From Escherichia phage vB_EcoM_E9.1: DNA of 64,000 bases. Position numbers and translations under genes: made by a program. How positions within the stretch are numbered: the stretch's first letter is position 1; the number at the start of each line of letters is the position of its first letter. Of this stretch, positions 6,749-62,555 are shown one piece after another. The DNA lies in sequence record PP886230; one strand, 5' to 3'. The notes below the pieces were generated by a model. It was given only the letters and a program-made list of their open reading frames with translations. It searched no databases and was not told the origin of the DNA.

Positions 6749-6940
6749 ATGTTGATTTATCAAAGTGATAATATTCGTGTTATGCAGCATCCCTACTTAC
6801 AAATCTTTGATGTGCAGCAGTATATGGAAGGTGATGACCCAAGAACCTATGGTCGTAAGTATGATTACTTCACTGTAAAGCAGTGTAAAAATATTAACGA
6901 AGTACGACAATTAGTTCAAGAACTTCAAAACAAAGGTTGA
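6749..6940 (+). CDS. hypothetical protein (63 aa)
   Basis: in-frame ATG with aagga RBS inside track ORF 6695-6940. Confidence 0.45.
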   Translation: MLIYQSDNIRVMQHPYLQIFDVQQYMEGDDPRTYGRKYDYFTVKQCKNINEVRQLVQELQNKG

Positions 6941-6966
6941 CTTCGGTCAGCCTTTTTTGTTATAAT
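6932..6966 (+). terminator. terminator/promoter hybrid element
   Basis: aaaGGTTGACttcgGTCAGCCtttttt hairpin with TTGACT in 5' arm, TATAAT ~18 nt downstream. Confidence 0.6.
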
Positions 6967-6994
6967 TCTCTTAATAAATTAGAGGATTTTAATT

Positions 6995-7435
6995 ATGTAT
7001 GTATATCGTTTTGAACTTAAATTTAGTTACATTGAACCTAACTTAGATCCTGCACGAACTGTAGGTCCGTTTGCACGGTATTCAACTAGATACAGTACTA
7101 AAAATGGATTTGACCGTTTGCTTATGACTACACCTTCTCAATTCCAACCTGAACCAACTGAGGATGGGATCTATTCAATCAAAAGTGGATGGGTATTTGG
7201 CTGTCAAAGTTTGAAAGATTTGTTCAGATTCTTCACTATGGACTTGGGTAAATTGCATCGTGCTGGGTTTGCTATATCTGTATATGAAGTTCCAGACCAC
7301 CATGTAGACATTGGTCGTAATCAGGTTCAGTACTATTGCGGTAGTGCTAAATTAGTTCGTATCATGTCAGTTAAGGAAGCAAAGGATGAGTTCCGACAAA
7401 GTAAAAGAGAAACACATGAGGTAATATATGGATAA
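6995..7435 (+). CDS. hypothetical protein (146 aa)
   Basis: ORF after terminator/promoter element at ~6932-6966. Confidence 0.55.
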   Translation: MYVYRFELKFSYIEPNLDPARTVGPFARYSTRYSTKNGFDRLLMTTPSQFQPEPTEDGIYSIKSGWVFGCQSLKDLFRFFTMDLGKLHRAGFAISVYEVPDHHVDIGRNQVQYYCGSAKLVRIMSVKEAKDEFRQSKRETHEVIYG

Positions 7436-7772
7436 AACTCAAATAGAATTAAAGAAATTTGTTTCATTCTATTTTCCTGATGACCCACGTAATTCACAAA
7501 AAGATATTGAATATTATAATATCCTATCTAAACAGTTAATGAGAAAGTTTCAACAGTGTTTAACTATATTCAATACAGATGGAAGACGTAGATACCGAAT
7601 CGTTTCAATGAATGATGAAAACGCAAATTTCTTTGATTACGATGTAGTTTTTAGAGCATATAATGATGATCGTATAAAATTAAATTATGATCAAATTATA
7701 CTTGACCTGAATGTTATATGTGTTATAATCACTCACGTAGCCGAACTTAATGGTTTTAAAGAATGGTATTGA
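7428..7772 (+). CDS. hypothetical protein (114 aa)
   Basis: ORF. Confidence 0.5.
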   Translation: MDKTQIELKKFVSFYFPDDPRNSQKDIEYYNILSKQLMRKFQQCLTIFNTDGRRRYRIVSMNDENANFFDYDVVFRAYNDDRIKLNYDQIILDLNVICVIITHVAELNGFKEWY

Positions 7773-7786
7773 ATAGAGGATAACAT

Positions 7787-8053
7787 ATGAAGCTTAAATT
7801 ACAATATAATGGATTTACTTTACGTAATGATACTGAATTTATTAATCGTTCTCCTGGTGCTGAACTGTTTTTACGAGAGATGAACATTCCTTTCATCATT
7901 ACTACAGTGGGCGACCGTGAAGTTCTACAATATGCAGAGCATCCGATTATTGATGTTCCTTGGTACTCTGAGCATATGTACATGGATATGGCACGTCGCT
8001 ACAACTGTAAGTTCGTAGTTGAAGGTGATAAAATTACAGTCGAATTTAAATAA
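7787..8053 (+). CDS. hypothetical protein (88 aa)
   Basis: RBS agagga. Confidence 0.55.
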   Translation: MKLKLQYNGFTLRNDTEFINRSPGAELFLREMNIPFIITTVGDREVLQYAEHPIIDVPWYSEHMYMDMARRYNCKFVVEGDKITVEFK

Positions 8054-8065
8054 GGTAAATTAAAA

Positions 8066-8359
8066 ATGATCAGTACTTCAGTTAATGAAAGCATCGTCGC
8101 TGACGTAGAAATGGTTAAAGAATGTGCAGATGAAACTCTTCGTGATATGTACATTAATGATTTAATTACTGAATACGGTAGTCGTGGTGTACACGAATTT
8201 ATTCGTTTAAGTGGAGAGTTGATGAAAAATCGAATTCGTATGAAGCTTAACGTACATCCAAAAGCATGGGCATTTACATTAAAATACGCAGAAGATATTG
8301 TGAATTTGCGTCGAACTGAAGTATATGAACGTTTGCACAATGGTATGTTAGATAAATGA
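8066..8359 (+). CDS. hypothetical protein (97 aa)
   Basis: ORF followed by terminator hairpin. Confidence 0.55.
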   Translation: MISTSVNESIVADVEMVKECADETLRDMYINDLITEYGSRGVHEFIRLSGELMKNRIRMKLNVHPKAWAFTLKYAEDIVNLRRTEVYERLHNGMLDK

Positions 8360-8364
8360 TTGTA

Positions 8365-8394
8365 AAAAAGGAATTCTTAAATGAATTCCTTTTT
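8365..8394 (+). terminator. intrinsic terminator
   Basis: aaaaaggaattc-ttaaat-gaattccttttt. Confidence 0.6.
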
Positions 8395-8411
8395 GTTTAT
8401 AAGGTATAGTA

Positions 8412-8633
8412 ATGAAATATATAGTACTTGTACTGATATTATTCAGTACTGTTGTAAGTGCTAAACAAAAAGAATATGTTAAATGTATAAATTATGAAGA
8501 GAAATATGTTGAAACATATAAAAAAAGTATAATTAAAAACGTTTCGATTACTAACAGAGCAACAATCATTGTACTTAAAAATGGGTTAATTATGCTATAT
8601 AAACCACACGTTAAATGTGAAATTATTAATTGA
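8412..8633 (+). CDS. small secreted protein
   Basis: signal-like N-terminus. Confidence 0.5.
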   Translation: MKYIVLVLILFSTVVSAKQKEYVKCINYEEKYVETYKKSIIKNVSITNRATIIVLKNGLIMLYKPHVKCEIIN

Positions 8634-8640
8634 GGAAATT

Positions 8641-9213
8641 ATGAATCGTAAAGGTCGTTTTAAAGTATCAAAAAAGAACAAAAGTTCTAGGTTTAAACCT
8701 ATTGTTTTAACAGTTAAATCTAACAAAGAATTAACTGCACTTAGTAAAAAGATAATTTCATCTAAGATTGAAGTATCATACGTAAATTCATTAAAATATA
8801 TGAATGTCAAACCACTGGACCAACTCATTTCACTTATATTTGAACGTAATGATTTTGAGATATCAGTAGATGATTATAGAGCCTATAATGCTGGTTTCAT
8901 TAATGTTACTTGTAATAAAAAACTAACTGAGTTGGAAAATTTGTCATGTATAATAAATCTAGATAAAGGTGTTGTGAAGTACCATTTTGTACATTTCACT
9001 AATATCAATAATGGAATGGGTGTACAATCCAGACCTATAGTGCCTACGTGTGATGTTACTAAATTAGCAAAGCTCAATGATGAAGAATATTTTCAAGAAA
9101 GCATTGTAACTGAGCATTTAGATGATATAATAGCTACTTACAAAGAATGCATATGGGTGTTGAATGCTATAAAACCTAAATTGTGTTTAATGAATATTGT
9201 TCGTGATTTATGA
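8641..9213 (+). CDS. hypothetical protein (~190 aa)
   Basis: ATG with gaggaaatt RBS inside track ORF 8617-9213. Confidence 0.5.
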   Translation: MNRKGRFKVSKKNKSSRFKPIVLTVKSNKELTALSKKIISSKIEVSYVNSLKYMNVKPLDQLISLIFERNDFEISVDDYRAYNAGFINVTCNKKLTELENLSCIINLDKGVVKYHFVHFTNINNGMGVQSRPIVPTCDVTKLAKLNDEEYFQESIVTEHLDDIIATYKECIWVLNAIKPKLCLMNIVRDL

Positions 9214-9226
9214 ATGGGGAATCGTA

Positions 9227-10169: not shown

Positions 10170-10174
10170 TAAAA

Positions 10175-10215
10175 AGGGGTTGACTAAGGTCAGCCCTTTG
10201 TTGTATCATAAATTC
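10175..10215 (+). terminator. terminator/promoter hybrid element (variant)
   Basis: GGGTTGACtaagGTCAGCCCttt. Confidence 0.5.
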
Positions 10216-10238
10216 TCAATATAACTGAGGTATCATAT

Positions 10239-10352
10239 ATGCAAGGTTTGAAATTTGTAGTTGCTGCACTCATCGCCGCAGTACTGGTTGGTGGTGTATT
10301 CTATGTAGTGGATCAAAAAGTAAATCCACCTGCACAAGAACAATCTAAGTAA
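10239..10352 (+). CDS. small hydrophobic peptide (37 aa)
   Basis: short ORF MQGLKFVVAALIAAVLVGGVFYVV with RBS, between two terminator/promoter elements; coordinates approximate. Confidence 0.4.
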   Translation: MQGLKFVVAALIAAVLVGGVFYVVDQKVNPPAQEQSK

Positions 10353-10356
10353 CAAA

Positions 10357-10392
10357 ATAAGGTTGACTTCGGTCAGCCTTTTCTTTATACTA
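10357..10392 (+). terminator. terminator/promoter hybrid element
   Basis: GGTTGACttcgGTCAGCCttttc then TATACT. Confidence 0.55.
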
Positions 10393-11696: not shown

Positions 11697-11735
11697 ACAA
11701 AAGGTTGACTTCGGTCAGCCTTTTTTTGTAAATAC
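11697..11735 (+). terminator. terminator/promoter hybrid element
   Basis: aaaGGTTGACttcgGTCAGCCttttttt. Confidence 0.55.
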
Positions 11736-11763
11736 AAAAGAGGAATTAAGAAGAGGGATTACA

Positions 11764-12015
11764 ATGAAAAAATATATTATATTTGGAATTGTATTATTTT
11801 CCAGTACTGCTTATGGTGCAGATTATCATTGCTCCGTAGCAAGGCAGGATTTCAGAAATGGGGAGTTCTATACTACCTCATACACAAAAGGAATAATACA
11901 CGACACCGACAGAACTATTGGATTTAATGCGTTTGACAACAAAGATTCATATACTTCAGGTATACTATCTGAGCGTAAGACTGATGTAATGGGAATAGAA
12001 AAAGAGTTCCGGTGA
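11764..12015 (+). CDS. small secreted protein
   Basis: internal ATG (MKKYIIFGIVLFSSTAYGA) with RBS aggaatt; signal peptide. Confidence 0.5.
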   Translation: MKKYIIFGIVLFSSTAYGADYHCSVARQDFRNGEFYTTSYTKGIIHDTDRTIGFNAFDNKDSYTSGILSERKTDVMGIEKEFR

Positions 12016-12025
12016 TTCAGTAGCA

Positions 12026-12325
12026 ATGTGCAATGGCATTGAAAGTACTAAAACAATTTATTATAATAATGAACGTAACTATCGTTTTCATAATTTAACC
12101 ACAAATAAAAGTTTACTATTTTACAATTGTAAAGAAGTAATACTCCCATCAGACAATAGCTGTACTCCAACTAATCAACCCCCAGCACAATGTAATACTC
12201 CCTCTGAACCTGATAAAAATAAAAAAGACAAAAAACCTTTAAAAGATAAAAAGAAAGATAAAAAACCTAATCCGTTTAAAAATAATAAACAAGCACAACC
12301 CGATATGACGTGTAAAATAAAATAA
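12026..12325 (+). CDS. hypothetical protein, Lys-rich C-terminus
   Basis: ORF. Confidence 0.4.
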   Translation: MCNGIESTKTIYYNNERNYRFHNLTTNKSLLFYNCKEVILPSDNSCTPTNQPPAQCNTPSEPDKNKKDKKPLKDKKKDKKPNPFKNNKQAQPDMTCKIK

Positions 12326-12334
12326 GGATATATA

Positions 12335-12754
12335 ATGAAAAAGATTTTTTTAAGTATTATTTTAGTACTTTTTAGTTTTAATGTATATGCAGCAGATGCT
12401 AAACAGGTTGCAAATACAGTAAAAGATGTTATAGTAGATAATGCTCCTACATTAGAGGAAATTGGGGTAAAAACTTGTGATATAGTAATATATAATTTAG
12501 TTAATGATGAACGAGTTATGTTGAATACGTATGAACAAGTAGTCCCATTGGTTGAATCTGGTGATGCTTTTAGCTTTACATATAAAGTTAAATTAACAGG
12601 AGGGGTTGAAGTTAATCTTGACATTGATACCGCTTCAGTACTAAAAGATAAACTAGGATATGTGTTCAATCGTATTCGTGAAGAAGGTCATCTTAAGTAT
12701 GTTTATGAAAGTAAAATACTAAAACGTGCAATAGTTATAGAAAACTGTAAATGA
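12335..12754 (+). CDS. secreted protein (signal peptide)
   Basis: N-terminus MKKIFLSIILVLFSFNVYA. Confidence 0.55.
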   Translation: MKKIFLSIILVLFSFNVYAADAKQVANTVKDVIVDNAPTLEEIGVKTCDIVIYNLVNDERVMLNTYEQVVPLVESGDAFSFTYKVKLTGGVEVNLDIDTASVLKDKLGYVFNRIREEGHLKYVYESKILKRAIVIENCK

Positions 12755-12760
12755 TAATAA

Positions 12761-12795
12761 AAGGGTTGACTTCGGTCAGCCTTTTTTGTTATGAT
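12761..12795 (+). terminator. terminator/promoter hybrid element
   Basis: aaGGGTTGACttcgGTCAGCCtttttt then TATGAT. Confidence 0.55.
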
Positions 12796-16956: not shown

Positions 16957-17046
16957 ATGGATTAAACAATGAAGAAGTGTATGATTCTTTGTTCTAATCA
17001 CCATCGCATGGTACATTCTGGTAGACTATGTTTGATTGAAAGAAAA

Positions 17047-17082
17047 AAAGGGTTGACTTCAGTCGGCCCTTTTTGCTATAAT
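17047..17082 (+). terminator. terminator/promoter hybrid element upstream of denV
   Basis: GGGTTGACttcaGTCGGCCCttttt GC TATAAT. Confidence 0.6.
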
Positions 17083-18325: not shown

Positions 18326-18328
18326 CAT

Positions 18329-18364
18329 AAAGGGTTGACTTCGGTCAGCCCTTTTTGCTATAAT
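18329..18364 (+). terminator. terminator/promoter hybrid element
   Basis: aaGGGTTGACttcgGTCAGCCCttttt GC TATAAT. Confidence 0.6.
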
Positions 18365-18390
18365 TATTTTATCGAAACGAGAGGTAATAC

Positions 18391-18630
18391 ATGAAACTAT
18401 CTTTTATACGTTTAGCAGAATTCTTCGGTACTGATATTATTACTTTACAACAAATTGCAGACAATACTTCATTAAGTACACAAGAAGTACTTGACTTAGA
18501 TGTAATTCAGTGCGATAATACTTCCATTGATTTCAAAGAAGGTCTTGTCGAAAAAGATAAGATTCAAGCTAAGATTAATGGTGCTGGACGGGTTCAGTAC
18601 TGGAAAGGAGTTTTAAGTAATGCCAGCTAA
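18391..18630 (+). CDS. hypothetical protein (79 aa)
   Basis: ORF after terminator/promoter element. Confidence 0.5.
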   Translation: MKLSFIRLAEFFGTDIITLQQIADNTSLSTQEVLDLDVIQCDNTSIDFKEGLVEKDKIQAKINGAGRVQYWKGVLSNAS

Positions 18631-28260: not shown

Positions 28261-29403
28261 TCAATAAACATCCCAAGGTAATGGGGTCTTCCTAAATCCA
28301 TACCTGGTTGTGCTCGCACCATCTCCAGCAATGTATCGACCGATGCCACATTGGTATAACTCTGTACTACTACATATAGCACCACCAATAGTACCACTAC
28401 CCCACTGAATTATATTAGAATATGTTATTGGTAAATCACTACATTTAGTATATACACCAACGGTAGCAGCACCACTAATACCACCAAACATGCTTCGGTT
28501 AGCACCAGTGTAATATATACCATCTGGACTCATAAATGCAGAGGTGTACGTTGTACTACAATCCACTGGACTTCTTATAGTATTAAGATCGCCAGGGTAT
28601 GTTCTAGCAGCATATACGTAAACATTACCATCAGTAGTAATACCATTACCCAACTGACCACTGTTCTGACCACCACACGTAACTAACGATGCAGAACCAG
28701 AAACAATTGCAGTAGCATTATACGAAGTACCCATTGCAATAGAAGCACCAGACAATAGTTTTGGTGTAACGATAGCTGTTGTATTACCCTGGCCTAATTC
28801 ACCATTTGTGTTTCGTCCCCATGCGTATATAGAAGTCGTATCCAATCGACATAGTACTGAACCATAACTAAACGTATATCGCATGTCATTTACAGCAGAA
28901 GGCAAATTAACCTTAGTTGCAACACTAATAACACCACCAGTAACACCACTGTTTGCGTTCATGTTACGACCATATGCATATAAAGAACCATCTGAAGTTT
29001 TAATATGCATCATACCATCTGTGCAATATAATGCATCGATGCTATCCACCGCAACCGGACCCATACTGGCAGTTATATCGGTCCATCCAAGAGTAGTAGT
29101 ACTAGAAATTAAGTTATTTCCTGCGTAAAGGATTCTATTATTATTAGTAACTACCACTGTATATCTAGCAGTAACTCCAATTAATCGAACATCAGTATAT
29201 ATCTTAGACCACGCACCTAGTGAATTGGTATTTGCATCCAAAAAGCCTAACTGCCCATCTGTATTGTATCCAATACCCCATGCATCACCTGCACTGTCCA
29301 ATAACACTTCATGTGAAAAGCCAATCTTAAAATCTTTTATTGTAGGAACTACCGGAACTGGTGCAATATTCCCGTACTTAACCATTCTTCCAAAAGGTAA
29401 CAT
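28261..29403 (-). CDS. leader-tagged RCC1-like beta-propeller protein
   Basis: leader MLPFGRMVKYGNIAP; motifs GYNTDGQLGF, GRNTNGELGQG, GGQNSGQLGNG; start trimmed from track ORF. Confidence 0.75.
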   Translation of the reverse strand: MLPFGRMVKYGNIAPVPVVPTIKDFKIGFSHEVLLDSAGDAWGIGYNTDGQLGFLDANTNSLGAWSKIYTDVRLIGVTARYTVVVTNNNRILYAGNNLISSTTTLGWTDITASMGPVAVDSIDALYCTDGMMHIKTSDGSLYAYGRNMNANSGVTGGVISVATKVNLPSAVNDMRYTFSYGSVLCRLDTTSIYAWGRNTNGELGQGNTTAIVTPKLLSGASIAMGTSYNATAIVSGSASLVTCGGQNSGQLGNGITTDGNVYVYAARTYPGDLNTIRSPVDCSTTYTSAFMSPDGIYYTGANRSMFGGISGAATVGVYTKCSDLPITYSNIIQWGSGTIGGAICSSTELYQCGIGRYIAGDGASTTRYGFRKTPLPWDVY

Positions 29404-29474
29404 AATTCCCTCCTTATTCATTATACTATATTTAATACAAATAAGAAAGCCAGTATCAAGTACTGGCCTATATT
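29404..29474 (-). promoter_or_regulatory. cassette spacer: hairpin, -10 TATAAT, RBS
   Basis: same conserved spacer. Confidence 0.55.
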
Positions 29475-30212
29475 TTAGACTGAATTGTTAGGATAATATC
29501 TCCCACGTCCCCATATTATTCGCACAGCACCACCACCAGCAGCCGTATAAGAAAAATTATCCCATATACTACCACCACCACCATACATCTTACCAGCACC
29601 ACCACTACCAGCACCACCATTATATGAACCATCGTATCTACCGCCAATACCATTAGCACCTTGAACAATGATACCAGTACCACCACCCGTACCAATGAAC
29701 GAGGTATTATAGAATGCACCACCACCACCGCCGCCGCCAGCACCATTTTCACCAGTGATTGCATCTCCGTTACCACCTTTACCAGTGTAGCCACCAGCAC
29801 CACCACCAATGACTGCACCACCACTTACACCAGCGTTGCCCCCATTACCACCACCATCATTAATAGCGTTAGCAGCTTTCCCACCTAGTCCACCAACCCT
29901 ATATTCACCAGTGAAGCTAACACATAGTTTTTCAGTTCCACGATATAAACCGTTTTCAACTGCTGTAGTAGTGTTGGGATGTGTAAGAGAAACACTTAAG
30001 TACTCACCACCAGAAACCGGAATATTATTACGCCACGATAAGCCGCCACCAGCACCACGTTGACCACCCGGCGAAATAACACATACTGATATTTCGGTAA
30101 CGCCAGCAGGAACTGTAAATTGTGTTGTTCCTATTGTCGTGATTAATTGTTCACCATGTGGCTTATATTCAATTTTATTCCCGTACTTAACCATTCTTCC
30201 AAAAGGTAACAT
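29475..30212 (-). CDS. leader-tagged glycine-rich protein
   Basis: same leader MLPFGRMVKYGN fused to Gly-rich body (GGGNGGNAGVSGG...). Confidence 0.65.
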   Translation of the reverse strand: MLPFGRMVKYGNKIEYKPHGEQLITTIGTTQFTVPAGVTEISVCVISPGGQRGAGGGLSWRNNIPVSGGEYLSVSLTHPNTTTAVENGLYRGTEKLCVSFTGEYRVGGLGGKAANAINDGGGNGGNAGVSGGAVIGGGAGGYTGKGGNGDAITGENGAGGGGGGGAFYNTSFIGTGGGTGIIVQGANGIGGRYDGSYNGGAGSGGAGKMYGGGGSIWDNFSYTAAGGGAVRIIWGRGRYYPNNSV

Positions 30213-30283
30213 ACTTCCTCCTTTATTCATTATACTATATTTAATACAAATAAGAAAGCCAGTACAAAGTACTGGCTAAATTA
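30213..30283 (-). promoter_or_regulatory. cassette spacer: hairpin, -10 TATAAT, RBS
   Basis: same conserved spacer. Confidence 0.55.
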
Positions 30284-31474: not shown

Positions 31475-31545
31475 AAATTCCTCCTTTATTCATTATACTA
31501 TATTTAATACAAATAAGAAAGCCAGTACAGTGTACTGGCATTAAA
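31475..31545 (-). promoter_or_regulatory. cassette spacer: hairpin, -10 TATAAT, RBS
   Basis: same conserved spacer. Confidence 0.55.
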
Positions 31546-35085: not shown

Positions 35086-35093
35086 ATTCCCTC

Positions 35094-38828: not shown

Positions 38829-39056
38829 ATGACAAATACTCTTAAGTACTACCTCAATACTCTAAATGAACTAGAGTACGGGGAATTTCTCGCGGATAGT
38901 TCGTGGCTAATTGAGCTAAAAAATTATAATAGTCCAGGATGCACCCTTATGATGAACAATGCAATTGATACCCTCATTGTGAGTATTTTACACAGCAACA
39001 TCTGCGGGGATAGCAATAAACAATTATCAAAAATCTTAGTACTGCTATCTATATGA
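38829..39056 (+). CDS. small-paralog family member (75 aa)
   Basis: N-term ..KYYLNTL, central NNAIDT, hydrophobic C-term ILVLLSI. Confidence 0.6.
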   Translation: MTNTLKYYLNTLNELEYGEFLADSSWLIELKNYNSPGCTLMMNNAIDTLIVSILHSNICGDSNKQLSKILVLLSI

Positions 39057-39256
39057 ATATCGAACAGTACTACATCGATGCACTACCAACAAAAGGTCTA
39101 CGTGAAAGCCTACTGCATACACAAACTAATTTCAAACACCTCAAACGTAGCCCTAAACTCCTGAACTCGTACAGGAATAATAACATAAGAAATGCTTTAC
39201 AAGGGGTAGAATGTATGCAATACTATTACATCCTTACCCTATTAATCGAGTACTAA
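39053..39256 (+). CDS. small-paralog family member
   Basis: family motifs; start overlaps upstream stop. Confidence 0.6.
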   Translation: MNIEQYYIDALPTKGLRESLLHTQTNFKHLKRSPKLLNSYRNNNIRNALQGVECMQYYYILTLLIEY

Positions 39257-39257
39257 T

Positions 39258-39467
39258 ATGAATACTGAACATAAAGAATTCTACACCAAATACCTTAGCA
39301 ACGAAGAACAATTGTTTCTAAGGAGTGTATCACCTGTAAGTACCAATACTCAATTCGGTAGAGATTGCTTTAATAATTGTATACGTAGTACTCTAGAAGC
39401 AATCGAATGCAATAACAAAAATATTATGTACTCAGGTTTAATAGGACTAATATATTTCTATGAATAA
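39258..39467 (+). CDS. small-paralog family member
   Basis: MNTEHKEFYTKY...FGRDCFNNCI...LIGLIYFYE. Confidence 0.6.
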   Translation: MNTEHKEFYTKYLSNEEQLFLRSVSPVSTNTQFGRDCFNNCIRSTLEAIECNNKNIMYSGLIGLIYFYE

Positions 39468-39654
39468 TCATAAAGATTTCTATTGTAGTAAACTACCCAA
39501 ACAAGAACAGCTATCATTCTCTTTAGCACCACCTATGAGAAAGGATAATCTGTATTATAATTACGATTTCAGGATGGTGACACGTTATGCAATAGAACAT
39601 CAGTTCCCTGAAACTAAGTACCGCTCTATCCTGAACCTCATCTTTAAGTTCTAA
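39460..39654 (+). CDS. small-paralog family member
   Basis: MNNHKDFYCSKL...; overlapping start. Confidence 0.6.
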   Translation: MNNHKDFYCSKLPKQEQLSFSLAPPMRKDNLYYNYDFRMVTRYAIEHQFPETKYRSILNLIFKF

Positions 39655-39706
39655 AAGGTACACCAGGGACCGAGTACTTTAATATAGTAAGGCTAATTAC
39701 ATTATA

Positions 39707-39892
39707 ATGAATCATATAAGCTACTACTACCAACAACTATCCGACAGAGACAAGTACAGTCACAACTCCCATGTGTGGTACTACAAACGCGGCAGTATAA
39801 GAGACAAACAACATTACTTCTGTATTTCTATTAAAGAAGCACTGACAACTAAGTACACGTACCGAGCAGTACTTAAACTTATTGAAATGTAA
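39707..39892 (+). CDS. small-paralog family member
   Basis: C-terminal YRAVLKLIEM. Confidence 0.55.
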   Translation: MNHISYYYQQLSDRDKYSHNSHVWYYKRGSIRDKQHYFCISIKEALTTKYTYRAVLKLIEM

Positions 39893-39902
39893 AGAGAATA
39901 CT

Positions 39903-40085
39903 ATGAACATTGAATTGTACTTAAGTAAATTACAGCCTGGCGATAGATTCATCTACAATAAGTTCGAATTCAACTACAAGAACGGGAGCAACAAATATCG
40001 TCGAGGATACCTATATACAAGCACAAGAGATGCACAAAACGAAAAGTACACATACAGAGAAGTACTTAAACTAATCTCTATTTGA
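39903..40085 (+). CDS. small-paralog family member
   Basis: internal ATG (MNIELYLSKL); C-term YREVLKLISI. Confidence 0.55.
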   Translation: MNIELYLSKLQPGDRFIYNKFEFNYKNGSNKYRRGYLYTSTRDAQNEKYTYREVLKLISI

Positions 40086-40093
40086 GGTAATAT

Positions 40094-40279
40094 ATGAATA
40101 CATTTGAGTACTATACCAATAAACTATCTATGCCTGAAAGATCTCATCTCTATGTGTGGAGAAATGCGTATAAAAGCGGCAATAAACTTATACAAAGAAA
40201 TTCCCTTACAGTGTGTACAAATTTAATTAAAGCAGAGTACCGCACATATATTGAAGTACTCAAACTGATAGCAATATAA
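40094..40279 (+). CDS. small-paralog family member
   Basis: MNTFEYYTNKL...YIEVLKLIAI. Confidence 0.6.
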   Translation: MNTFEYYTNKLSMPERSHLYVWRNAYKSGNKLIQRNSLTVCTNLIKAEYRTYIEVLKLIAI

Positions 40280-40287
40280 GGTACTCT

Positions 40288-40467
40288 ATGCAAGAATTCT
40301 ATATCTATAACCTCCAGCACAAAGATAGATACAACTATAATAAATTCCAAAGGTACTACACAGTCGGGAACAAAAGAGATAAAAAACGTTATCTACTCTC
40401 GTGTACAGTAGAAGCACAAAACGAAAAGTACACGTACAGAGAAGTACTTAAACTAATCTCAATCTAA
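40288..40467 (+). CDS. small-paralog family member (59 aa, not in track)
   Basis: MQEFYIYNLQ...YREVLKLISI; fills gap between neighbours. Confidence 0.5.
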   Translation: MQEFYIYNLQHKDRYNYNKFQRYYTVGNKRDKKRYLLSCTVEAQNEKYTYREVLKLISI

Positions 40468-40474
40468 GGTAGAC

Positions 40475-40663
40475 ATGAACACTTTTGAGTACTACTTCAA
40501 TAAACTAAACCACATAGAACAAAGTATGCACCACACATTTATTCAGAACCATCAATCATCTTCACCTCTAATTAAAAACATATCGATTGAGATTATCACT
40601 ACCCGTGTACAGTCATCTGAACGTTATATGTATATTGATGTACTGAAACTCATCTCTATGTAA
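40475..40663 (+). CDS. small-paralog family member
   Basis: MNTFEYYFNKL...YIDVLKLISM. Confidence 0.6.
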   Translation: MNTFEYYFNKLNHIEQSMHHTFIQNHQSSSPLIKNISIEIITTRVQSSERYMYIDVLKLISM

Positions 40664-40671
40664 GGAATACT

Positions 40672-40851
40672 ATGCAACAATTCTATAGAGAACACATAAG
40701 CATTAAAGACCGTTTCATGTACGACACCTTCGTGAAGTACTACAAACTAGGAACAAAAAGTACTAAAAATATTAATCTCAATAGCTGCATTTATGCTGTA
40801 CTAACACAAGATAATCCCTACAGGGAAATCATTGCCCTGGCATCTATATAA
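40672..40851 (+). CDS. small-paralog family member (59 aa, not in track)
   Basis: MQQFYREHISIKDRF...; fills gap. Confidence 0.45.
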   Translation: MQQFYREHISIKDRFMYDTFVKYYKLGTKSTKNINLNSCIYAVLTQDNPYREIIALASI

Positions 40852-40861
40852 AGGAAACCAA

Positions 40862-41521
40862 ATGAAACTTAATCCACACAGCAAACAATACCTTAAGCAC
40901 TTTAAATACCTCAACAGTATTCAAGCAGAATCTTTTACACCAGCATATACGTATCACCCAAATGTACTAAAGAAACGAAATAAAAAGAAAAAATCCAGAA
41001 ATGTTCTCGTATCTAAGAACCTCAAATCGTACTTGAAGAAAAATAATATAGCTCTTGCTTTTATTAATATCTATAATACTGATTTAAAAGTATTGAGTAC
41101 TAATACCAGCACAAAAGCACTAAAGAATGCATCTATCTATATACACATGGATAATATCCCGTGCACTATAATTCTATCTTTCGGGAATGTATACTTCTTC
41201 GGGAATTGTAATAGCACCCATGATATCAGTACTGCACAATTCCAAATCGGCGATATGTACTGCATGGGTTCAGAAAAAATACACGATAACATGCACTTCT
41301 TCCAAAAGCAACGTACTAACGAAACTGATACAGTACTGCAATTCCTAAAAGAACTACAAAACAAAGAATTAACACCAGAAGAAGAATTCATGTACAGTAC
41401 TGTAATCGATAATCCAGAACTCTATAAAAACGCGTACAATCTAACAAAACATGTACAGGAACTTATCAGTACTGATAAGAAATTTCATCACCTCATTACG
41501 TATATTTCAAACTATGTATAA
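40862..41521 (+). CDS. hypothetical protein (220 aa) embedded in small-paralog operon
   Basis: ATG with aaggaaacc RBS; unrelated to flanking family. Confidence 0.5.
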   Translation: MKLNPHSKQYLKHFKYLNSIQAESFTPAYTYHPNVLKKRNKKKKSRNVLVSKNLKSYLKKNNIALAFINIYNTDLKVLSTNTSTKALKNASIYIHMDNIPCTIILSFGNVYFFGNCNSTHDISTAQFQIGDMYCMGSEKIHDNMHFFQKQRTNETDTVLQFLKELQNKELTPEEEFMYSTVIDNPELYKNAYNLTKHVQELISTDKKFHHLITYISNYV

Positions 41522-41696
41522 AGAATACTACAAAGATAAAATCCCAATGCATCTACAACACCATATACCAAACGTTGCATTGGGTATCAAAGATCACGCA
41601 AAGATAATGTTCCAACAATGTACTAAGTACACGCTCATATACGATGATAATCCATATATGCTGTACTACGTAGTAATGCTAACATTCAGGTACTAA
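41514..41696 (+). CDS. small-paralog family member
   Basis: MYKEYYKDKIPMHLQHHIP...MLTFRY; ATGTATAA overlap. Confidence 0.55.
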   Translation: MYKEYYKDKIPMHLQHHIPNVALGIKDHAKIMFQQCTKYTLIYDDNPYMLYYVVMLTFRY

Positions 41697-41697
41697 T

Positions 41698-41877
41698 ATG
41701 AATACTTATAAAGAATTCTACCTCTCGTACCTTAATTCCGATATAGTAACATCCAATACATTCAGTACTAAAATTATCTATAATGAATTAATGAAAGAAT
41801 GTATTAAAGGTGCTATTAACCCTAAAGATACGTATGACTTGTACTATGCAGTACTAACCCTTGTTTTCACGAAATAA
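41698..41877 (+). CDS. small-paralog family member (59 aa, not in track)
   Basis: MNTYKEFYLSYL...KECIKGAI...LTLVFTK. Confidence 0.5.
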   Translation: MNTYKEFYLSYLNSDIVTSNTFSTKIIYNELMKECIKGAINPKDTYDLYYAVLTLVFTK

Positions 41878-41885
41878 CACATAAT

Positions 41886-42077
41886 ATGAATAACCACATA
41901 GAATACTACATAGAGAAACTCCCAATGTATCTCCAACACCTTGTACCAACAGTACCATTGGGTATAGAAAAAAACTACGAAAAAGACTACTTCATTCAGT
42001 GCACTAAATCCTCGATATATATTGAAGACTATAATCGAGTACTGTATCACATCCTTTTACTAATATATAGGTACTAA
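41886..42077 (+). CDS. small-paralog family member
   Basis: MNNHIEYYIEKLPMYLQHLVP...LLLIYRY. Confidence 0.6.
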   Translation: MNNHIEYYIEKLPMYLQHLVPTVPLGIEKNYEKDYFIQCTKSSIYIEDYNRVLYHILLLIYRY

Positions 42078-42078
42078 T

Positions 42079-42261
42079 ATGCACAAAGAATACTACACAC
42101 AATTTCTCCCCAGCATTTTTGAACACTACGCCAGATACAAAGTCCCTATGGATAACGATTTGGCAGTACTGGGATTCAATAACTGCATAGAACGAAGTAT
42201 AGAAAATAGTAGTAGTTATGACCAGCTATATAACACTATCCTACTTATATTCAGGTACTAA
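42079..42261 (+). CDS. small-paralog family member
   Basis: MHKEYYTQFL...NNCIERSIEN...LLIFRY. Confidence 0.6.
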   Translation: MHKEYYTQFLPSIFEHYARYKVPMDNDLAVLGFNNCIERSIENSSSYDQLYNTILLIFRY

Positions 42262-42262
42262 T

Positions 42263-42451
42263 ATGCATAAAGAATACTACACAAAATATTTCCCAATGTA
42301 CCTCAGTACTAATCTATTAGATAAACCTCGCGGTATCAATGCACAAAACGATAAAGTGTACTTTACTATGTGCACTAAAGCATGTATACTAGATTTTGAC
42401 AGCTATCATCGAGTACTGTATCATACCCTGTACCTAGCTTTCGTATTCTAA
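42263..42451 (+). CDS. small-paralog family member
   Basis: internal ATG (MHKEYYTKYF). Confidence 0.55.
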   Translation: MHKEYYTKYFPMYLSTNLLDKPRGINAQNDKVYFTMCTKACILDFDSYHRVLYHTLYLAFVF

Positions 42452-42460
42452 AAGAACAAT

Positions 42461-42646
42461 ATGCATAAAGAATTCTACTTAAGCCATCTCGATCTAAACT
42501 CCCAAATGCTTATACCACTAATCCCAATAGATATCAAGGATAAGAAAAATACCGAACAATTCATTTACCATACACAGTGTGCGATCACCCCAAATTACAT
42601 TCCATATGAATTGTACTACATTATCGCCCTAATATATAGGTACTAA
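42461..42646 (+). CDS. small-paralog family member
   Basis: MHKEFYLSHL...IALIYRY. Confidence 0.6.
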   Translation: MHKEFYLSHLDLNSQMLIPLIPIDIKDKKNTEQFIYHTQCAITPNYIPYELYYIIALIYRY

Positions 42647-42647
42647 T

Positions 42648-42833
42648 ATGCATAGAGAATACTACACACAATTTGTTAAAGGGAACTACAAATGTGCCGT
42701 ACCCAGAACCCCTTTAAATTCTCATGACCCAAGTACTATATTCTTGTTTAATGACGCAATACGTACAGTACTCAATACTAAAGATGAAGATGTGCAGTAC
42801 GTATTCTTACTATTACTTATATACAGACACTAA
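42648..42833 (+). CDS. small-paralog family member
   Basis: MHREYYTQFV...LLLLIYRH. Confidence 0.6.
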   Translation: MHREYYTQFVKGNYKCAVPRTPLNSHDPSTIFLFNDAIRTVLNTKDEDVQYVFLLLLIYRH

Positions 42834-42838
42834 CTAAT

Positions 42839-43048
42839 ATGAATAAAGAACATAAAGAATTCTACTCCAAATACATAAGCCCCTCAGAACAAATGTTTCT
42901 AAGGACTACTCCACCTTTAAGTACTAATACATTTTTCGGCAGAGTATGCTACAATAATTGTATTCAAATGACTTTAAACGCAAATGAAGATGGTAACAGT
43001 ACTAACCTGTACTCCGGCATCATAGGTATACTATTCCTGTATGAATAA
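42839..43048 (+). CDS. small-paralog family member
   Basis: MNKEHKEFYSKY...FGRVCYNNCIQ; close paralog of 39258. Confidence 0.6.
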   Translation: MNKEHKEFYSKYISPSEQMFLRTTPPLSTNTFFGRVCYNNCIQMTLNANEDGNSTNLYSGIIGILFLYE

Positions 43049-43229
43049 TTACAAAGACTTCTATTTGAATACACTACCTACTGTACTTTCTCTAAGTGCT
43101 CAATGTAAAATCCCCCTGGATAATGCTTACGCCAGATATAGCTATTCCATAACTGTTAATCGATGTATAGAGAATCATTGCAGTACTAACCAGTACTATA
43201 ACATAATCCTACTTATATTCAGGTACTAA
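43041..43229 (+). CDS. small-paralog family member
   Basis: MNNYKDFYLNTL...VNRCIENHC...LLIFRY. Confidence 0.6.
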   Translation: MNNYKDFYLNTLPTVLSLSAQCKIPLDNAYARYSYSITVNRCIENHCSTNQYYNIILLIFRY

Positions 43230-43230
43230 T

Positions 43231-43413
43231 ATGAATAAAGAACATAAAGAATTCTATATACGAAAACTAACATTCGTCCCCGTAAGAATATATAAAGAAT
43301 GCGACCCAAGATTATACCTATGGCACTTCAATGAGTGCATAAAAGATTCTATATACCATAAGAACTATAAAGAACAATTGTGCTCAGTACTAACACTAGT
43401 ACTATCATATTAA
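43231..43413 (+). CDS. small-paralog family member
   Basis: MNKEHKEFYIRKL...FNECIKDSI. Confidence 0.6.
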   Translation: MNKEHKEFYIRKLTFVPVRIYKECDPRLYLWHFNECIKDSIYHKNYKEQLCSVLTLVLSY

Positions 43414-43428
43414 TTAATAGAGAATACT

Positions 43429-43620
43429 ATGTATAAAAACTTCTATATAAGTAAACTAAAAGAAAATGAACAAGTATGGATTAGATCTATAATTCCACTG
43501 GCATTTAATAGATATGCATTTAACAGATGTACCGAGATTGCTATAGACCCTTATAATATTAAAGAGAATGTACAGTATAATCAGTACTACTATATCTTAA
43601 TGCTTATATATAGAAAGTAA
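43429..43620 (+). CDS. small-paralog family member (last)
   Basis: MYKNFYISKL...FNRCTEIAID...LMLIYRK. Confidence 0.6.
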   Translation: MYKNFYISKLKENEQVWIRSIIPLAFNRYAFNRCTEIAIDPYNIKENVQYNQYYYILMLIYRK

Positions 43621-43715: not shown

Positions 43716-44265
43716 TCTCCCCAGGCTAAACCCCGTAATCATAGGTAGTCATAAGTAATCATATATAAACATTTATATGAGCACCGTAGAATCACAGAAT
43801 GATTATATATGATTCAGTACTGATTAGTATAGACAAGATTGCTCAAGAATGCACGGAAATGTGTGTGAATGATTCAGTACTGATATGCCACTAAGTAGGC
43901 AGAGGAAGTCTGCCGTACTTTGTAGTTTCCAAGCTCCTTTTCCATTTTGTAAATTACATCAAATGTAATCAAAAGTAATCACGCAATGATTAGTACTGAA
44001 TTATTACTTTCACCTTAATTACAATTACCCTTTTACCCTTCGGGGTAAAATTCAATTACCCCTTGAGGCTCCAGCAAAAAGTTGGTTAGTACTCCATCCT
44101 AAATCTCGATCCTAAAAATTTTGGAGTACCTATGAAATAAAAGTTGGATCTTCGAAAGTTGAAATTTACGTTGGGACGTTTATGATTTGTGGGATATAAT
44201 GATGTTTGTAGACGGGTAGTTCTCAAGAATATCAGTACTGAATGGTGAAAGAAAGTTATTGACAT

Positions 44266-44296
44266 TATGATTCAGTACTGTATAATGTTTTACATA
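44266..44296 (+). promoter_or_regulatory. sigma70-type promoter with no downstream ORF
   Basis: TTGACA - spacer containing cagtactg - TATAAT, then gttttacat; no ORF over 60 aa for >1 kb. Confidence 0.45.
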
Positions 44297-44599
44297 GAGA
44301 GATGAGTTGCCGCAAACAATTCATTCACTCTACCTCCTGTCGTGAGACAGTACAGAAAGATAGTTCCTCCAATGGGTGGTACATCTTTTTGAACCTCATA
44401 TGAAAATTGTAATAACAGTACTGATATTAACAGAATGGTGTCAGTACTGATTTTAATCTAAAGCATTATGCCACCAGCACAAGCTGGTGGATTCCCTCTA
44501 ACAGTATTCAGTACTACATGATAGTCTTCATCCTCCTAGGGTAACATAGTGAGGGCTATGATGGCAGTACTGAATACTCCCTTTCAAAAGATAGATCTA

Positions 44600-45410: not shown

Positions 45411-45503
45411 TTGATTCAGTACTGAATAATAGTACTCCTATATAGAAAGATAGTTCCCCTGGATTGATTCAGTACTGAATAATAGTACTCCTATATAGAA
45501 AGA
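45411..45503. repeat. 40-bp perfect direct repeat x2
   Basis: ttgattcagtactgaataatagtactcctatatagaaaga at ~45411 and ~45464. Confidence 0.7.
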
Positions 45504-46988: not shown

Positions 46989-47237
46989 GCAGTTTACAAA
47001 TCTTTACAATTGCCGGTATTGACTTATTTTGTCAGTACTGGCATAATGTATTCATTGGCAGATAAGCCGTAGCCCATAGGGTGCGGGAGTGTATCTATAG
47101 AAAAATTAGTTTAGTATAGTTACAATTGTGCACCCGGTGGGTTAGCTGTTGTCATGGGGTATATTATGCCAGTACTTGATAATGCTGTCAATACTTTTTT
47201 TTACTATCCAGTACAGAAAACTATTTTTAAAAAGTAC

Positions 47238-53226: not shown

Positions 53227-53230
53227 AAAA

Positions 53231-53264
53231 GTGGTTGACTTCGGTCAGCCATTTTGCTATTATA
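53231..53264 (+). terminator. terminator/promoter hybrid element (second-half variant)
   Basis: TGGTTGACttcgGTCAGCCAtttt GC TATTAT. Confidence 0.55.
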
Positions 53265-53367
53265 TATTCATTGAGAGATAGCTCACTAGCCCACAGGGTG
53301 CAGGAGTGTATCTATTGTATAATGTTTGAGTACTGAAAACTATTTTAAAGTATTTGATAAAAAGTAC

Positions 53368-57254: not shown

Positions 57255-57267
57255 AAATATTTGAAAA

Positions 57268-57303
57268 AGGGATTGACTCCGGTCAGTCCCTTTGCTATTA
57301 TAT
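57268..57303 (+). terminator. terminator/promoter hybrid element (second-half variant)
   Basis: GGGATTGACtccgGTCAGTCCCttt GC TATTAT. Confidence 0.55.
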
Positions 57304-57391
57304 ACGCATAGAAACAATTCAGCCCACCGGGTGCATAAATGTATCTATTATATGCTGGTGGCTAGTACTGAAAACTATTTTTAAAAAGTAC

Positions 57392-60244: not shown

Positions 60245-60258
60245 AAAAAGATTAAAAA

Positions 60259-60295
60259 AGGGATTGACTCCGGTCAGTCCCTTTGCTATTATATA
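60259..60295 (+). terminator. terminator/promoter hybrid element (second-half variant)
   Basis: same as 57268 copy. Confidence 0.55.
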
Positions 60296-60385
60296 TTCAT
60301 TGAGAGATAACTCACTGACCCATAGGGTGCGGAAGTGTATCTATTATATAAGTATTCAGTACTGAAAACTATTTTTAAAAAGTAC

Positions 60386-60750: not shown

Positions 60751-60774
60751 ACACCAATAAAAGGAAACATAATT

Positions 60775-61235: not shown

Positions 61236-61242
61236 AAAGTAC

Positions 61243-61303
61243 TTGCATTGTAGTTAGATTAACGTATAATGTTTTACATAGAGCGGGGGAATAGTTCTCC
61301 CGC
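61243..61303 (+). promoter_or_regulatory. PeSL-like cassette
   Basis: TTGCAT .. TATAAT .. GCGGGGGAAtagTTCTCCCGC. Confidence 0.6.
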
Positions 61304-61321
61304 CAGTCCAGGAGATACACC

Positions 61322-61585
61322 ATGAACACTATCGAAATCACTATCAATGCACACGTATACGACAACGTAGTACTGCAAACTACTATGACCGCTAATGATA
61401 CCAGTACTTTGCGGAATACTGTTATTAGTGCCGTATGTGCCGCTATCGGTGATGTCGCCCTGGAAAATGCAAAACACGTAAACGATGGTTTCACTATGTG
61501 CAAACGTGATAACGCAAAACATATCATCGTGGAAGGTTACGGCGGTGTAGAATTTAATGTTTATATGAAAAAAGTACTTGCATAA
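61322..61585 (+). CDS. hypothetical protein (87 aa)
   Basis: cassette upstream; RBS aggag. Confidence 0.55.
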   Translation: MNTIEITINAHVYDNVVLQTTMTANDTSTLRNTVISAVCAAIGDVALENAKHVNDGFTMCKRDNAKHIIVEGYGGVEFNVYMKKVLA

Positions 61586-61634
61586 TAACTAAAACAAAGT
61601 ATAATGTTTTGCATAGGGGGAGATATCCTCCCCC
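61578..61634 (+). promoter_or_regulatory. PeSL-like cassette
   Basis: TTGCAT .. TATAAT .. GGGGGAGatatCCTCCCCC. Confidence 0.55.
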
Positions 61635-61652
61635 ACTAAAAGGAGTACTAAA

Positions 61653-61877
61653 ATGGCTAACTTTGATGAACTGATGCGGGAAGTAGCTAACCTGGCAGAA
61701 GAGAAGAAATCATTCGATTCTATCTATAACACCGCTCATCGTGATTCAGTACTGGCATGTAACCAGGATCAAAAAGATGAACTAATCGCCACCTATCATG
61801 AAGCATGGAAGTACTACCGACAATGGGAGAAAGAAGAAAGCGAGTCTACCATCAACGGCATCAATAATCTAATCTAA
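61653..61877 (+). CDS. hypothetical protein (74 aa)
   Basis: cassette upstream; RBS aaggag. Confidence 0.55.
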   Translation: MANFDELMREVANLAEEKKSFDSIYNTAHRDSVLACNQDQKDELIATYHEAWKYYRQWEKEESESTINGINNLI

Positions 61878-61953
61878 AAGTTTTATTTCAGTACTATTGA
61901 CATAGCTTGATAGTACTGATGTAATAACTTTACTAACTACAAGGGGAAACATA

Positions 61954-62211
61954 ATGGAACAGTTCACACAATATCGGGTAAATCCTCAAGCTATGGCCTA
62001 CGTAGAAGACCATAAAACGTTACCAGTACTGCAACCAGTTAAAGGCCATATCTATCGTGCAATGTCGTGGTGTGCGGCCCAGGATGGCTATAAAACCGTA
62101 GCCGTGGGTATGTACTGCGGTAATGGTGAATGGTTTGATCCAAATAATCCGGTAGCCATTGACAGTACTGAAAAAATGAAATGGGCCGACTACATCGAAG
62201 ATATTTCATAA
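61954..62211 (+). CDS. hypothetical protein (85 aa)
   Basis: promoter TTGACA..CTGATGTAAT upstream. Confidence 0.5.
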   Translation: MEQFTQYRVNPQAMAYVEDHKTLPVLQPVKGHIYRAMSWCAAQDGYKTVAVGMYCGNGEWFDPNNPVAIDSTEKMKWADYIEDIS

Positions 62212-62218
62212 AAACTAT

Positions 62219-62279
62219 TTGACAGTACTAACCAGTAATGTATAATGTTTTACATAGAGCGGGGGAATAGTTCTCCCGC
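62219..62279 (+). promoter_or_regulatory. PeSL-like cassette
   Basis: TTGACA .. TATAAT .. GCGGGGGAAtagTTCTCCCGC. Confidence 0.6.
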
Positions 62280-62301
62280 CAATAGTTTGGAGTTAAACAT
62301 T

Positions 62302-62502
62302 ATGTCTATCGCTATCTCCCTGGTTGAAGTACTGAAAGAAGCTAAAGCCAACCAGATCGACGTAAAGATCCAGGAACTACAAAACGGCTTAATCGGCTGT
62401 ACTTGTACCGCTGGTGGAGCGGCAGACTATCGAGAACACGAATCACTCGAATCACTGGTTCGGTATCTTTCCATGATCGTTGATGATTGGAGAATCATCT
62501 AA
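62302..62502 (+). CDS. hypothetical protein
   Basis: internal ATG (MSIAISLVEV) after RBS ggag. Confidence 0.5.
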   Translation: MSIAISLVEVLKEAKANQIDVKIQELQNGLIGCTCTAGGAADYREHESLESLVRYLSMIVDDWRII

Positions 62503-62518
62503 CAAAAAAGAATAAAAA

Positions 62519-62555
62519 AGGGATTGACTCCGGTCAGTCCCTTTGCTATTATATA
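62519..62555 (+). terminator. terminator/promoter hybrid element (second-half variant)
   Basis: same as 57268 copy. Confidence 0.55.

Follow-up and report, generated by a model that had tools for sequence, protein, structure and literature searches.

Promoter-early stem-loops (PeSLs) have been described in T4-type phages, namely RB49 and phi1, T4 and PST, and KVP40 and nt-1 (PMC2839356; PMC4122927). Each of them is an intergenic cassette in which an A/T-rich tract and a strong sigma-70-like promoter are combined with a terminating stem-loop (PMC2839356; PMC4122927). Five subclasses have been distinguished, in one of which the stem-loop overlaps the -35 box (PMC2839356), and the cassettes cluster in variable regions, at the ends of insertions and deletions (indels) (PMC2839356; PMC4122927). 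For the PeSLs of RB49 and phi1, promoter activity, terminator activity and the formation of mini-circles were shown experimentally (PMC2839356). Here we describe a short element that recurs between the genes of a 64,000-nucleotide stretch of Escherichia phage vB_EcoM_E9.1 (sequence record PP886230; this whole stretch is referred to as the window). The element matches the kind of cassette already described in T4-type phages and extends it to another lineage. We consider it likely that each copy is a compact PeSL-type cassette that fills essentially the whole gap between two genes and that would both end the incoming transcription and restart it; this mechanism, put forward in a first-pass annotation of the window, is the best supported one, with the addition of a role as a boundary for recombination.

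Both halves of the window, which are separated by a switch in composition near 44 kb, are 92-99% identical to the Asteriusvirus jumbo coliphages slurp01, SP27, phAPEC6, 121Q, PBECO4, UE-S1 and G17, where they are found in the same order and in the same records. By this resemblance the window is assigned to an Asteriusvirus (121Q/PBECO4-like, Rak2-related) jumbo coliphage. Asteriusvirus comprises Rak2-related phages of ~350 kb with their own RpoD-like sigma factor (PMC11895373), and the phage sigma factor of this group has been described as working with the host polymerase (PMC11895373). In the relatives, the gene for the RpoD-like sigma factor is located just upstream of the position that matches the start of the window.

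A search with the 20-mer GGGTTGACTTCGGTCAGCCC, allowing up to three mismatches, detected 12 matches in the window, all of them on the plus strand, starting at 6934, 10177, 10360, 11702, 12763, 17050, 18332, 20590, 53232, 57270, 60261 and 62521, and none in 100 dinucleotide-preserving shuffles used as a control for chance. All twelve copies are intergenic and oriented as the genes around them. The first-pass annotation had announced at least 12 intergenic copies across both halves, between 6932 and 62555; the count was confirmed, and these coordinates correctly bracket the first and the last copies. It had also assigned a variant to the second half. This holds for three copies, as the 22-mer GGGATTGACTCCGGTCAGTCCC occurs exactly three times (57269, 60260 and 62520), and not for the fourth (53232), whose sequence, TGGTTGACTTCGGTCAGCCA, is nearer the first-half type. 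Relaxing the pattern to TTGAC-N3-8-GTC[AG] brought in a single further site, a hairpin-poor promoter at 47019.

In the eight first-half copies the hairpin starts 3-10 nt past the upstream stop codon, or has the stop inside it (6934), and the next ATG lies 55-62 nt on, preceded by a GAGG Shine-Dalgarno sequence. In the second half, where a second promoter intervenes, the distance from each of the four copies to the next ATG is ~170-225 nt, and the hairpin elements are spaced about every 2-4 kb. When the copies were aligned on TTGAC, the conserved span covered ~42 bp, from the A-tract to the -10 hexamer, the Shine-Dalgarno sequence being more weakly conserved. Given that conservation is confined to signals, the repeat is a set of signals and not the remnant of a gene duplication; neither are the repeats known RNA genes, since Rfam and tRNA scans of the whole window gave no match. 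No copy of the element was found among 5,426 complete E. coli genomes, a result that rules out a host or prophage origin. Mobile miniature repeats, such as miniature inverted-repeat transposable elements or repetitive extragenic palindromic sequences, were also considered and rejected: the 12 copies share one orientation, lack a flanking duplication and conserve only regulatory signals, and the E. coli genomes have none.

Regarding the terminator half, each copy shows an A-tract, a G+C-clamped stem of 8-9 bp and a T-run after it, with a loop that is mostly UUCG or UCCG closed by a C-G pair; immediately 5' of the stem there is a run of 3-8 A in 12 of the 12 copies. Folding gave -13.9 to -19.5 kcal/mol for the sense RNA hairpins (z about -5 to -6) and -8.7 to -13.2 kcal/mol for the antisense ones, which are 5-6 kcal/mol weaker. 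The U·G wobble formed by TTGAC and GTCAG is conserved, and on the antisense strand it is a C·A mismatch; the copy at 17050 has a second such wobble (GTCGG). By inference, this asymmetry would also prevent a mirror-image TTGAC on the opposite strand. The T-run has 4-7 T in the first-half copies, and three T followed by GCTATTAT in the second-half variant.

A dedicated scan of the plus strand returned 18 terminator-like hairpins. Twelve of these are the 12 copies of this element, all with the G+C-rich stem, the short loop and the U-run within 1-2 nt that characterize intrinsic terminators, and the other terminators of the window have unrelated stems. A generic terminator scan listed just two of the eight first-half copies; its misses may be due to the stem being stretched into A/T pairs, which consumes the T-run. 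In the annotations of G17 and UE-S1, and in the supplementary table of the CBB paper, the same sequences are classed as Rho-independent terminators, with -16.8 kcal/mol in the case of GGGTTGACTTCGGTCAGCCC; these calls come from ARNold-type predictions, with a range of -13.5 to -17 kcal/mol. Fold energies, T-run and the terminator calls in relatives concur in supporting the hairpin and T-run as a predicted intrinsic terminator.

Regarding the promoter half, TTGACT, the putative -35 box, lies in the 5' arm of the stem, and a -10 hexamer (TATAAT, TATTAT, TATGAT, TATCAT or TATACT) is present 17-18 nt downstream in 11 of the 12 copies; the TG of an extended -10 accompanies it in nine. The spacer is of 18 nt in six first-half copies and of 17 nt in the copy at 10360 and in all four second-half copies. 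With the identical test, a -10 was found at 15% of random window positions. The first-pass annotation had placed the -10 about 18 nt from TTGACT; the copy at 11702 has no -10.

The exact 18-nt core of the hairpin occurs 56 times in the viral contigs of IMG/VR. The contigs that carry it include 121Q, RaK2, CBB, GAP32, fHe-Yen9-04, Aeromonas phage 65, Vibrio VH7D, Brochothrix A9 and several others of 110-160 kb. In 52 of these 56 cores a -10-like hexamer is retained at a spacing of 16-19 nt, in most cases with TG, and an equal layout was observed in single copies from ValKK3 (after rIIB), Vibrio D482, Aeromonas phage 65 and Cronobacter CR9. The outer pairs of the stem vary (G-C, A-T, T-A or C-G) yet stay paired, and most loops are of the UUCG/UNCG or GNRA type. 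Since the hairpin and the -10 are kept together across lineages, and a pure terminator would not need a -10, both functions are, judging from the sequence comparison, under selection.

Identical 18-37-mers were found in unrelated phages, and for this reason the shared element is not a lineage marker. The first-pass annotation had argued that the sharing of the element shows the two halves to belong to one genome; the conclusion is true, as the halves are contiguous in SP27, 121Q and UE-S1, but the argument was weak. The contig of Brochothrix phage A9 (IMG/VR L034, L040), which has a Gram-positive host, carries two exact 18-nt cores, each of them followed by TTTTGT-TATTAT, and these copies point to convergence on one design rather than to descent. 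The cassette of 27-40 bp is near base-for-base the same in Rak2-like jumbo phages, in the T4-type Schizotequatrovirus and Ishigurovirus, in Vequintavirinae and in Brochothrix A9. Speculatively, it could be a docking sequence for the exchange of ready-to-express gene cassettes between phage families in co-infection, i.e., a recombinase-free analogue of integron cassettes, an idea to which we give little credence; the alternative is a striking convergence on one optimal design.

What is new in the window is that relatives lack exactly the DNA between two neighbouring copies, in three cases, and that an endonuclease hot spot abuts another copy. In each of the three cases the shorter genome has a single chimeric copy, with the upstream flank of the left copy and the downstream flank of the right one, which is what a crossover inside the repeat would leave. 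The first missing block (cargo A, 10206..10347, plus strand) contains an open reading frame (ORF) of 37 aa between copies 2 and 3, and the second (cargo B, 11726..12747, plus strand), located between copies 4 and 5, holds three genes of unknown function; both are missing in UE-S1, where one chimeric copy is found at each place, and neither includes an endonuclease gene. The third (cargo C, 18373..20569, plus strand), between copies 7 and 8, contains a 79-aa ORF and an HNH endonuclease in two ORFs, and is missing in UE-S1 and SP27, with one chimeric copy in each; the absent block covers 18373-20569 in UE-S1 and 18373-20583 in SP27. In 121Q, G17, PBECO4 and ELP-22, other genes take the place of the region from 18608/18622 to 20586, with the copy at 20590 as the right end in every case. 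In the relatives, this endonuclease site is occupied by at least five different genes or is empty, and the replacements are endonuclease-like. The HNH-type homing endonuclease itself (~18620-20583) is encoded by two ORFs (449 and 193 aa) in the window versus a single coding sequence of 628 aa in slurp01. Most of the flanking and cargo genes have no Pfam hit or belong to a PHROG of unknown function.

Break-points were compared in the first 25 kb against seven relatives, and in the second half against UE-S1 and 121Q. Seven of 20 break-points fall in elements, which represent 2% of the sequence (binomial p about 1e-7), where break-points are ends of BLAST alignments and not fully independent events. 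According to exact-match scans of 121Q in IMG/VR, on which this genome-wide statement rests, all 7 exact 18-mer copies of 121Q and both of its variant copies lie inside the stretch equivalent to the window.

What was computed directly is how the copies are built, how their two strands differ, that hairpin and -10 are conserved together across lineages, and that the junctions in relatives are chimeric; from these results we infer the termination, the initiation, the sigma factor used and the recombination pathway in the following mechanism. In an incoming transcript the G+C-clamped UUCG/UCCG hairpin would form, and intrinsic termination would follow in the T-run; the hairpin could also shield the 3' end of the upstream mRNA. 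On the DNA, the TTGACT of the stem would serve as the -35 for the host RNA polymerase, directed by sigma-70 or possibly by the RpoD-like sigma factor of the phage, while the TG that closes the T-run would act as an extended -10 for the TATAAT/TATTAT placed 17-18 nt downstream. Transcription would restart ~7 nt past the -10, and the new mRNA would lack the hairpin and carry a short leader with GAGG and the ATG. The U·G wobble, due to a 3' arm that reads GTCAG and not GTCAA, would let the sense RNA stay paired, remove the mirror TTGAC and weaken the antisense hairpin, making the element directional. As a by-product or a second role, these direct repeats of ~40 bp could be used as crossover points, so that the cassettes between copies would be deleted, inserted or swapped. 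The anatomy, the comparative data and the precedent of RB49 and phi1 support the original proposal that the same short element could terminate and restart transcription.

Several points weigh against this mechanism. The copy at 11702 has no -10, and the variant copies have only three T directly after the stem; termination at the second-half variant may be partial. A terminating polymerase must enter the spacer of the promoter, and termination and initiation may therefore disturb one another instead of being well separated. As for recombination, one of the three clean indels, cargo C, holds a homing endonuclease, and its mobility may contribute at this site; the four second-half copies are conserved in place, with no break-points in UE-S1 and 121Q; and the partial dependence of the break-points mentioned above must be kept in mind. 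The papers on Asteriusvirus phages (Sharanji, fEgEco12 and UE-S1) include no promoter or terminator analysis and do not discuss these sites.

Could the copies be ordinary intrinsic terminators, the TTGAC of the stem and the TATAAT-like hexamer being incidental in A+T-rich intergenic DNA? The published annotations of relatives list the sites solely as terminators, copy 11702 is devoid of a -10, and the window has many other sigma-70-like promoters able to drive the genes. Nevertheless, we regard this as very improbable, given that the -10 is found at 17-18 nt in 11 of the 12 copies versus a background of 15%, with TG in nine, that a -10-like hexamer is kept at equal spacing in 52 of the 56 exact cores, which come from many unrelated phage contigs, and that the downstream genes begin 55-62 nt away with their own Shine-Dalgarno sequence. 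Moreover, the other terminators of the window have unrelated stems, so the recurring TTGAC is explained by its role as a -35 alone. Even less probable, in our opinion, is that TTGAC-N4-GTCA is an operator for a dimeric DNA-binding regulator, of the phage or of the host, over an early promoter, with the RNA hairpin being irrelevant. A palindrome centred on the promoter agrees with this idea, and symmetric changes at the outer positions suit a dimer-binding site as well. However, the repeat is systematically asymmetric, TTGAC versus GTCAG, which is a U·G pair in RNA and a half-site mismatch in DNA, and copy 17050 adds GTCGG; the loops favour the RNA-stabilising UUCG/UNCG/GNRA tetraloops, the T-run always comes after the stem, and the element is present even in a phage of Brochothrix, a host so distant that a common regulator is unlikely.

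Of more weight, although still unlikely, is the explanation that the elements are kept mainly as recombination linkers, that is, portable patches of homology that move gene cassettes within, and perhaps between, phage genomes, the transcription signals being the vehicle. It would account for the three indels placed exactly between neighbouring copies with chimeric junctions, the swap hot spot that abuts copy 20590, the enrichment of break-points at copies and the identical 27-37-mers in unrelated phage families, and it agrees with the mini-circles demonstrated for the PeSLs of RB49 and phi1 (PMC2839356). On the other hand, the conserved positions are exactly those for termination and initiation, homology alone would need neither strand asymmetry nor a fixed spacing, the second-half copies are stable in the relatives compared, and convergence on one functional optimum can explain the identity across families; sharing of cargo between families beside the element was not shown in this analysis. 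It is also doubtful that the promoter half is read by the phage RpoD-like sigma factor and not by host sigma-70, in which case the cassettes would be middle and not immediate-early signals. The relatives encode such a factor just upstream of the window start (PMC11895373), and the second, differently flanked promoter family of the window could mean two sigma specificities; nonetheless, the boxes are a near-perfect E. coli sigma-70 consensus with an extended -10, and the element is also present in the T4-type ValKK3 and in phage 65, which have no such sigma factor in the annotated regions examined.

Individually, the twelve copies, all on the plus strand, differ in the details of the stem, the loop and the -10. 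Copy 1 (6930..6966) has its hairpin at 6934-6953 (AGGTTGAC-TTCG-GTCAGCCT), TTGACT at 6937, an 18-nt spacer, TGt-TATAAT (6961-6966) and the ATG at 6995; the stop codon of the upstream ORF, TGA at 6938-6940, is inside TTGAC. Copy 2 (10173..10209), GGGTTGAC-TAAG-GTCAGCCC with TATCAT at 18 nt, lies ahead of the 37-aa ORF at 10239-10352, which it is predicted to drive. Copy 3 (10356..10391) has the same arms and loop as copy 1, AGGTTGAC-TTCG-GTCAGCCT, and TATACT at 17 nt; the ATG at 10415 starts a 425-aa homologue of a virion structural protein. Copy 4 (11698..11728) consists of hairpin and T-run only, with no -10 hexamer at 16-19 nt, and is probably a half element, i.e., only a terminator. Copy 5 (12759..12795), GGGTTGAC-TTCG-GTCAGCCT with TGt-TATGAT at 18 nt, precedes the ATG (12824) of a protein kinase homologue, and copy 6 (17044..17082), GGGTTGAC-TTCA-GTCGGCCC with the second U·G wobble and TGc-TATAAT at 18 nt, that of a pyrimidine-dimer glycosylase (17111). 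Copies 7 (18328..18364) and 8 (20586..20622) show the exact consensus, in copy 7 GGGTTGACTTCGGTCAGCCC-TTTTTGC-TATAAT; the ATG is at 18391 for the former and at 20651, in the gene of an AAA-type ATPase, for the latter, which is the constant right edge of the homing-endonuclease hot spot. In the second half, copy 9 (53227..53263) is TGGTTGAC-TTCG-GTCAGCCA, with T-A as the outer pair and TGc-TATTAT at 17 nt; an untranslated, conserved stretch of ~100 nt and then a second promoter come next. Copy 10 (57264..57301) is the variant GGGATTGAC-TCCG-GTCAGTCCC, with a 9-bp stem and TGc-TATTAT at 17 nt, and copies 11 (60255..60292) and 12 (62515..62552) are of this variant too.

The conserved untranslated stretch is found after the second-half hairpin elements (53264-53345, 57302-57375, 60293-60370 and 62553-62630) and after the promoter at 47019 (47040-47130). 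It has a core, GCCCAnAGGGTGC, and a small conserved hairpin, CCCAnAGGG, whose outer stem changes on both sides (CACU/AGUG versus ACAU/AUGU), and it is followed by the second promoter before the gene. Its folding is no better than that of shuffled sequences (z +0.2 to -1.4) and it has no Rfam match; in view of these energies an RNA gene is not claimed. A second, commoner cassette occurs between 44252 and 63136, with 25 aligned copies and more with variants, before nearly every second-half ORF of 60-110 aa. It is composed of AAAGTACTTGCA (or TATTGACA), N16-17, (G)TATAAT, GTTTTACAT, CGAGAG, the hairpin GGGGAnnnnnTCCCC, a Shine-Dalgarno sequence and the ATG. These cassettes, which make up 20% of the sequence, contain 26 of 37 alignment break-points against UE-S1 and 121Q. 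They may form another class akin to the PeSLs, in which the stem-loop lies downstream of the -10.

On the minus strand, from 24611 to 38725, there is a tandem array of ~11-12 RCC1-like paralogues of roughly 370-430 aa, each followed by the hairpin GCCAGTACnnnGTACTGGC and then by TTTCTTATTTGTATTAAATATAGTATAAT, a Shine-Dalgarno sequence and an ATG; the number and integrity of these paralogues differ between relatives. The hairpins between them (GCCAGTAC...GTACTGGC) were considered as a second hybrid with an embedded -35 and rejected, as they have no acceptable -35 at the right distance. From 38829 to 43620, on the plus strand, ~24 ORFs of 59-81 aa are arranged back to back; hardly any intergenic sequence separates them, and the repeated cassettes are absent. 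The motif AGTACT, often as CAGTACTG, is present throughout the window, e.g., at 44267-44306, 45411-45503, 23956 and 28255. It appears in all three repeat families, namely in the spacers of the second promoters, in the hairpins of the minus strand and in a 40-bp sequence duplicated exactly at 45411 and 45464, and might be a candidate binding site for a phage factor.

As for the composition switch, at ~43900-44200 of the window a jump in G+C and a flip in GC skew coincide with the start of the direct terminal repeat of the relative fEgEco12, which is of ~21 kb and was mapped experimentally; position 353,741 of the fEgEco12 record corresponds to ~44.1 kb of the window. Because of this coincidence the second half is taken as the terminal repeat, and the window probably reads across the physical end of the genome, as assembled in circular form.

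The comparison with known systems places the element closest to the PeSLs. Like them, the window copies are stop-to-ATG cassettes (a fit that is true for the eight first-half copies) with an A/T-rich tract, sigma-70-like -35 and -10 boxes at ~N17, a stable terminator stem-loop and a Shine-Dalgarno sequence, so that all the PeSL features that can be read at the sequence level were found. As in one PeSL subclass, the stem, of 8-9 bp, contains the -35 box. The copies also cluster among small genes of unknown function in variable regions and, in the first half only, indels and replacements between close relatives end in them. They differ from the PeSLs of the T4 group in their carrier, a Rak2-like jumbo phage (Asteriusvirus), and in a hairpin that is far more uniform: its 20-22 nt are fixed, its loop is UUCG/UCCG and its U·G wobble is conserved and directional. 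The -35 consensus stated for the PeSLs of nt-1 and KVP40, TTGYVH, does not match TTGACT, and while the PeSLs of RB49 and phi1 were assayed with reporters and by mini-circle formation, the window copies are known from their sequence.

Other systems share some of these features. The G+C-rich stem of 8-9 bp, the tetraloop and the immediate U-run are those of the intrinsic terminators of E. coli and its phages, but the stem sequence of an ordinary terminator is free. In the window copies, the 5' arm is constrained to a -35 box, and the TG at the end of the U-run belongs to an extended -10. A promoter of the N4 type, in which a hairpin extruded in the DNA is recognised by a phage-encoded single-subunit virion RNA polymerase, would not need the full sigma-70 boxes that the element carries. 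The units between copies resemble the morons of lambdoid phages, self-contained units in which a promoter and a terminator enclose one or a few accessory genes; however, morons share no repeat at their flanks and are thought to insert by illegitimate events, whereas the same repeat, an apparent crossover site, flanks every window unit. The block at ~18620-20586 encodes an HNH-type endonuclease, and other endonuclease genes are present in relatives, in likeness to the free-standing homing endonuclease genes seg and mob of T4-like phages, although an endonuclease is present in just one of the three indels bounded by the element, which itself encodes nothing.

In the searchable papers and records on Rak2-like phages, these hairpins appear only as terminators; as a consequence, a set of likely strong early promoters, and with it the true map of transcription units, has been missed in the annotation of these jumbo phages. 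The idea of promoter/terminator cassettes that mark the sites of gene shuffling can thus be extended from T4-type phages to Rak2-like jumbo phages and to several other lineages. The element represents a simple test case for the coexistence of termination and initiation within 40 bp, and its uniform design, with a -35 in a UUCG hairpin, a directional wobble and a T-run that ends in TG, makes it a neat natural part for synthetic biology.

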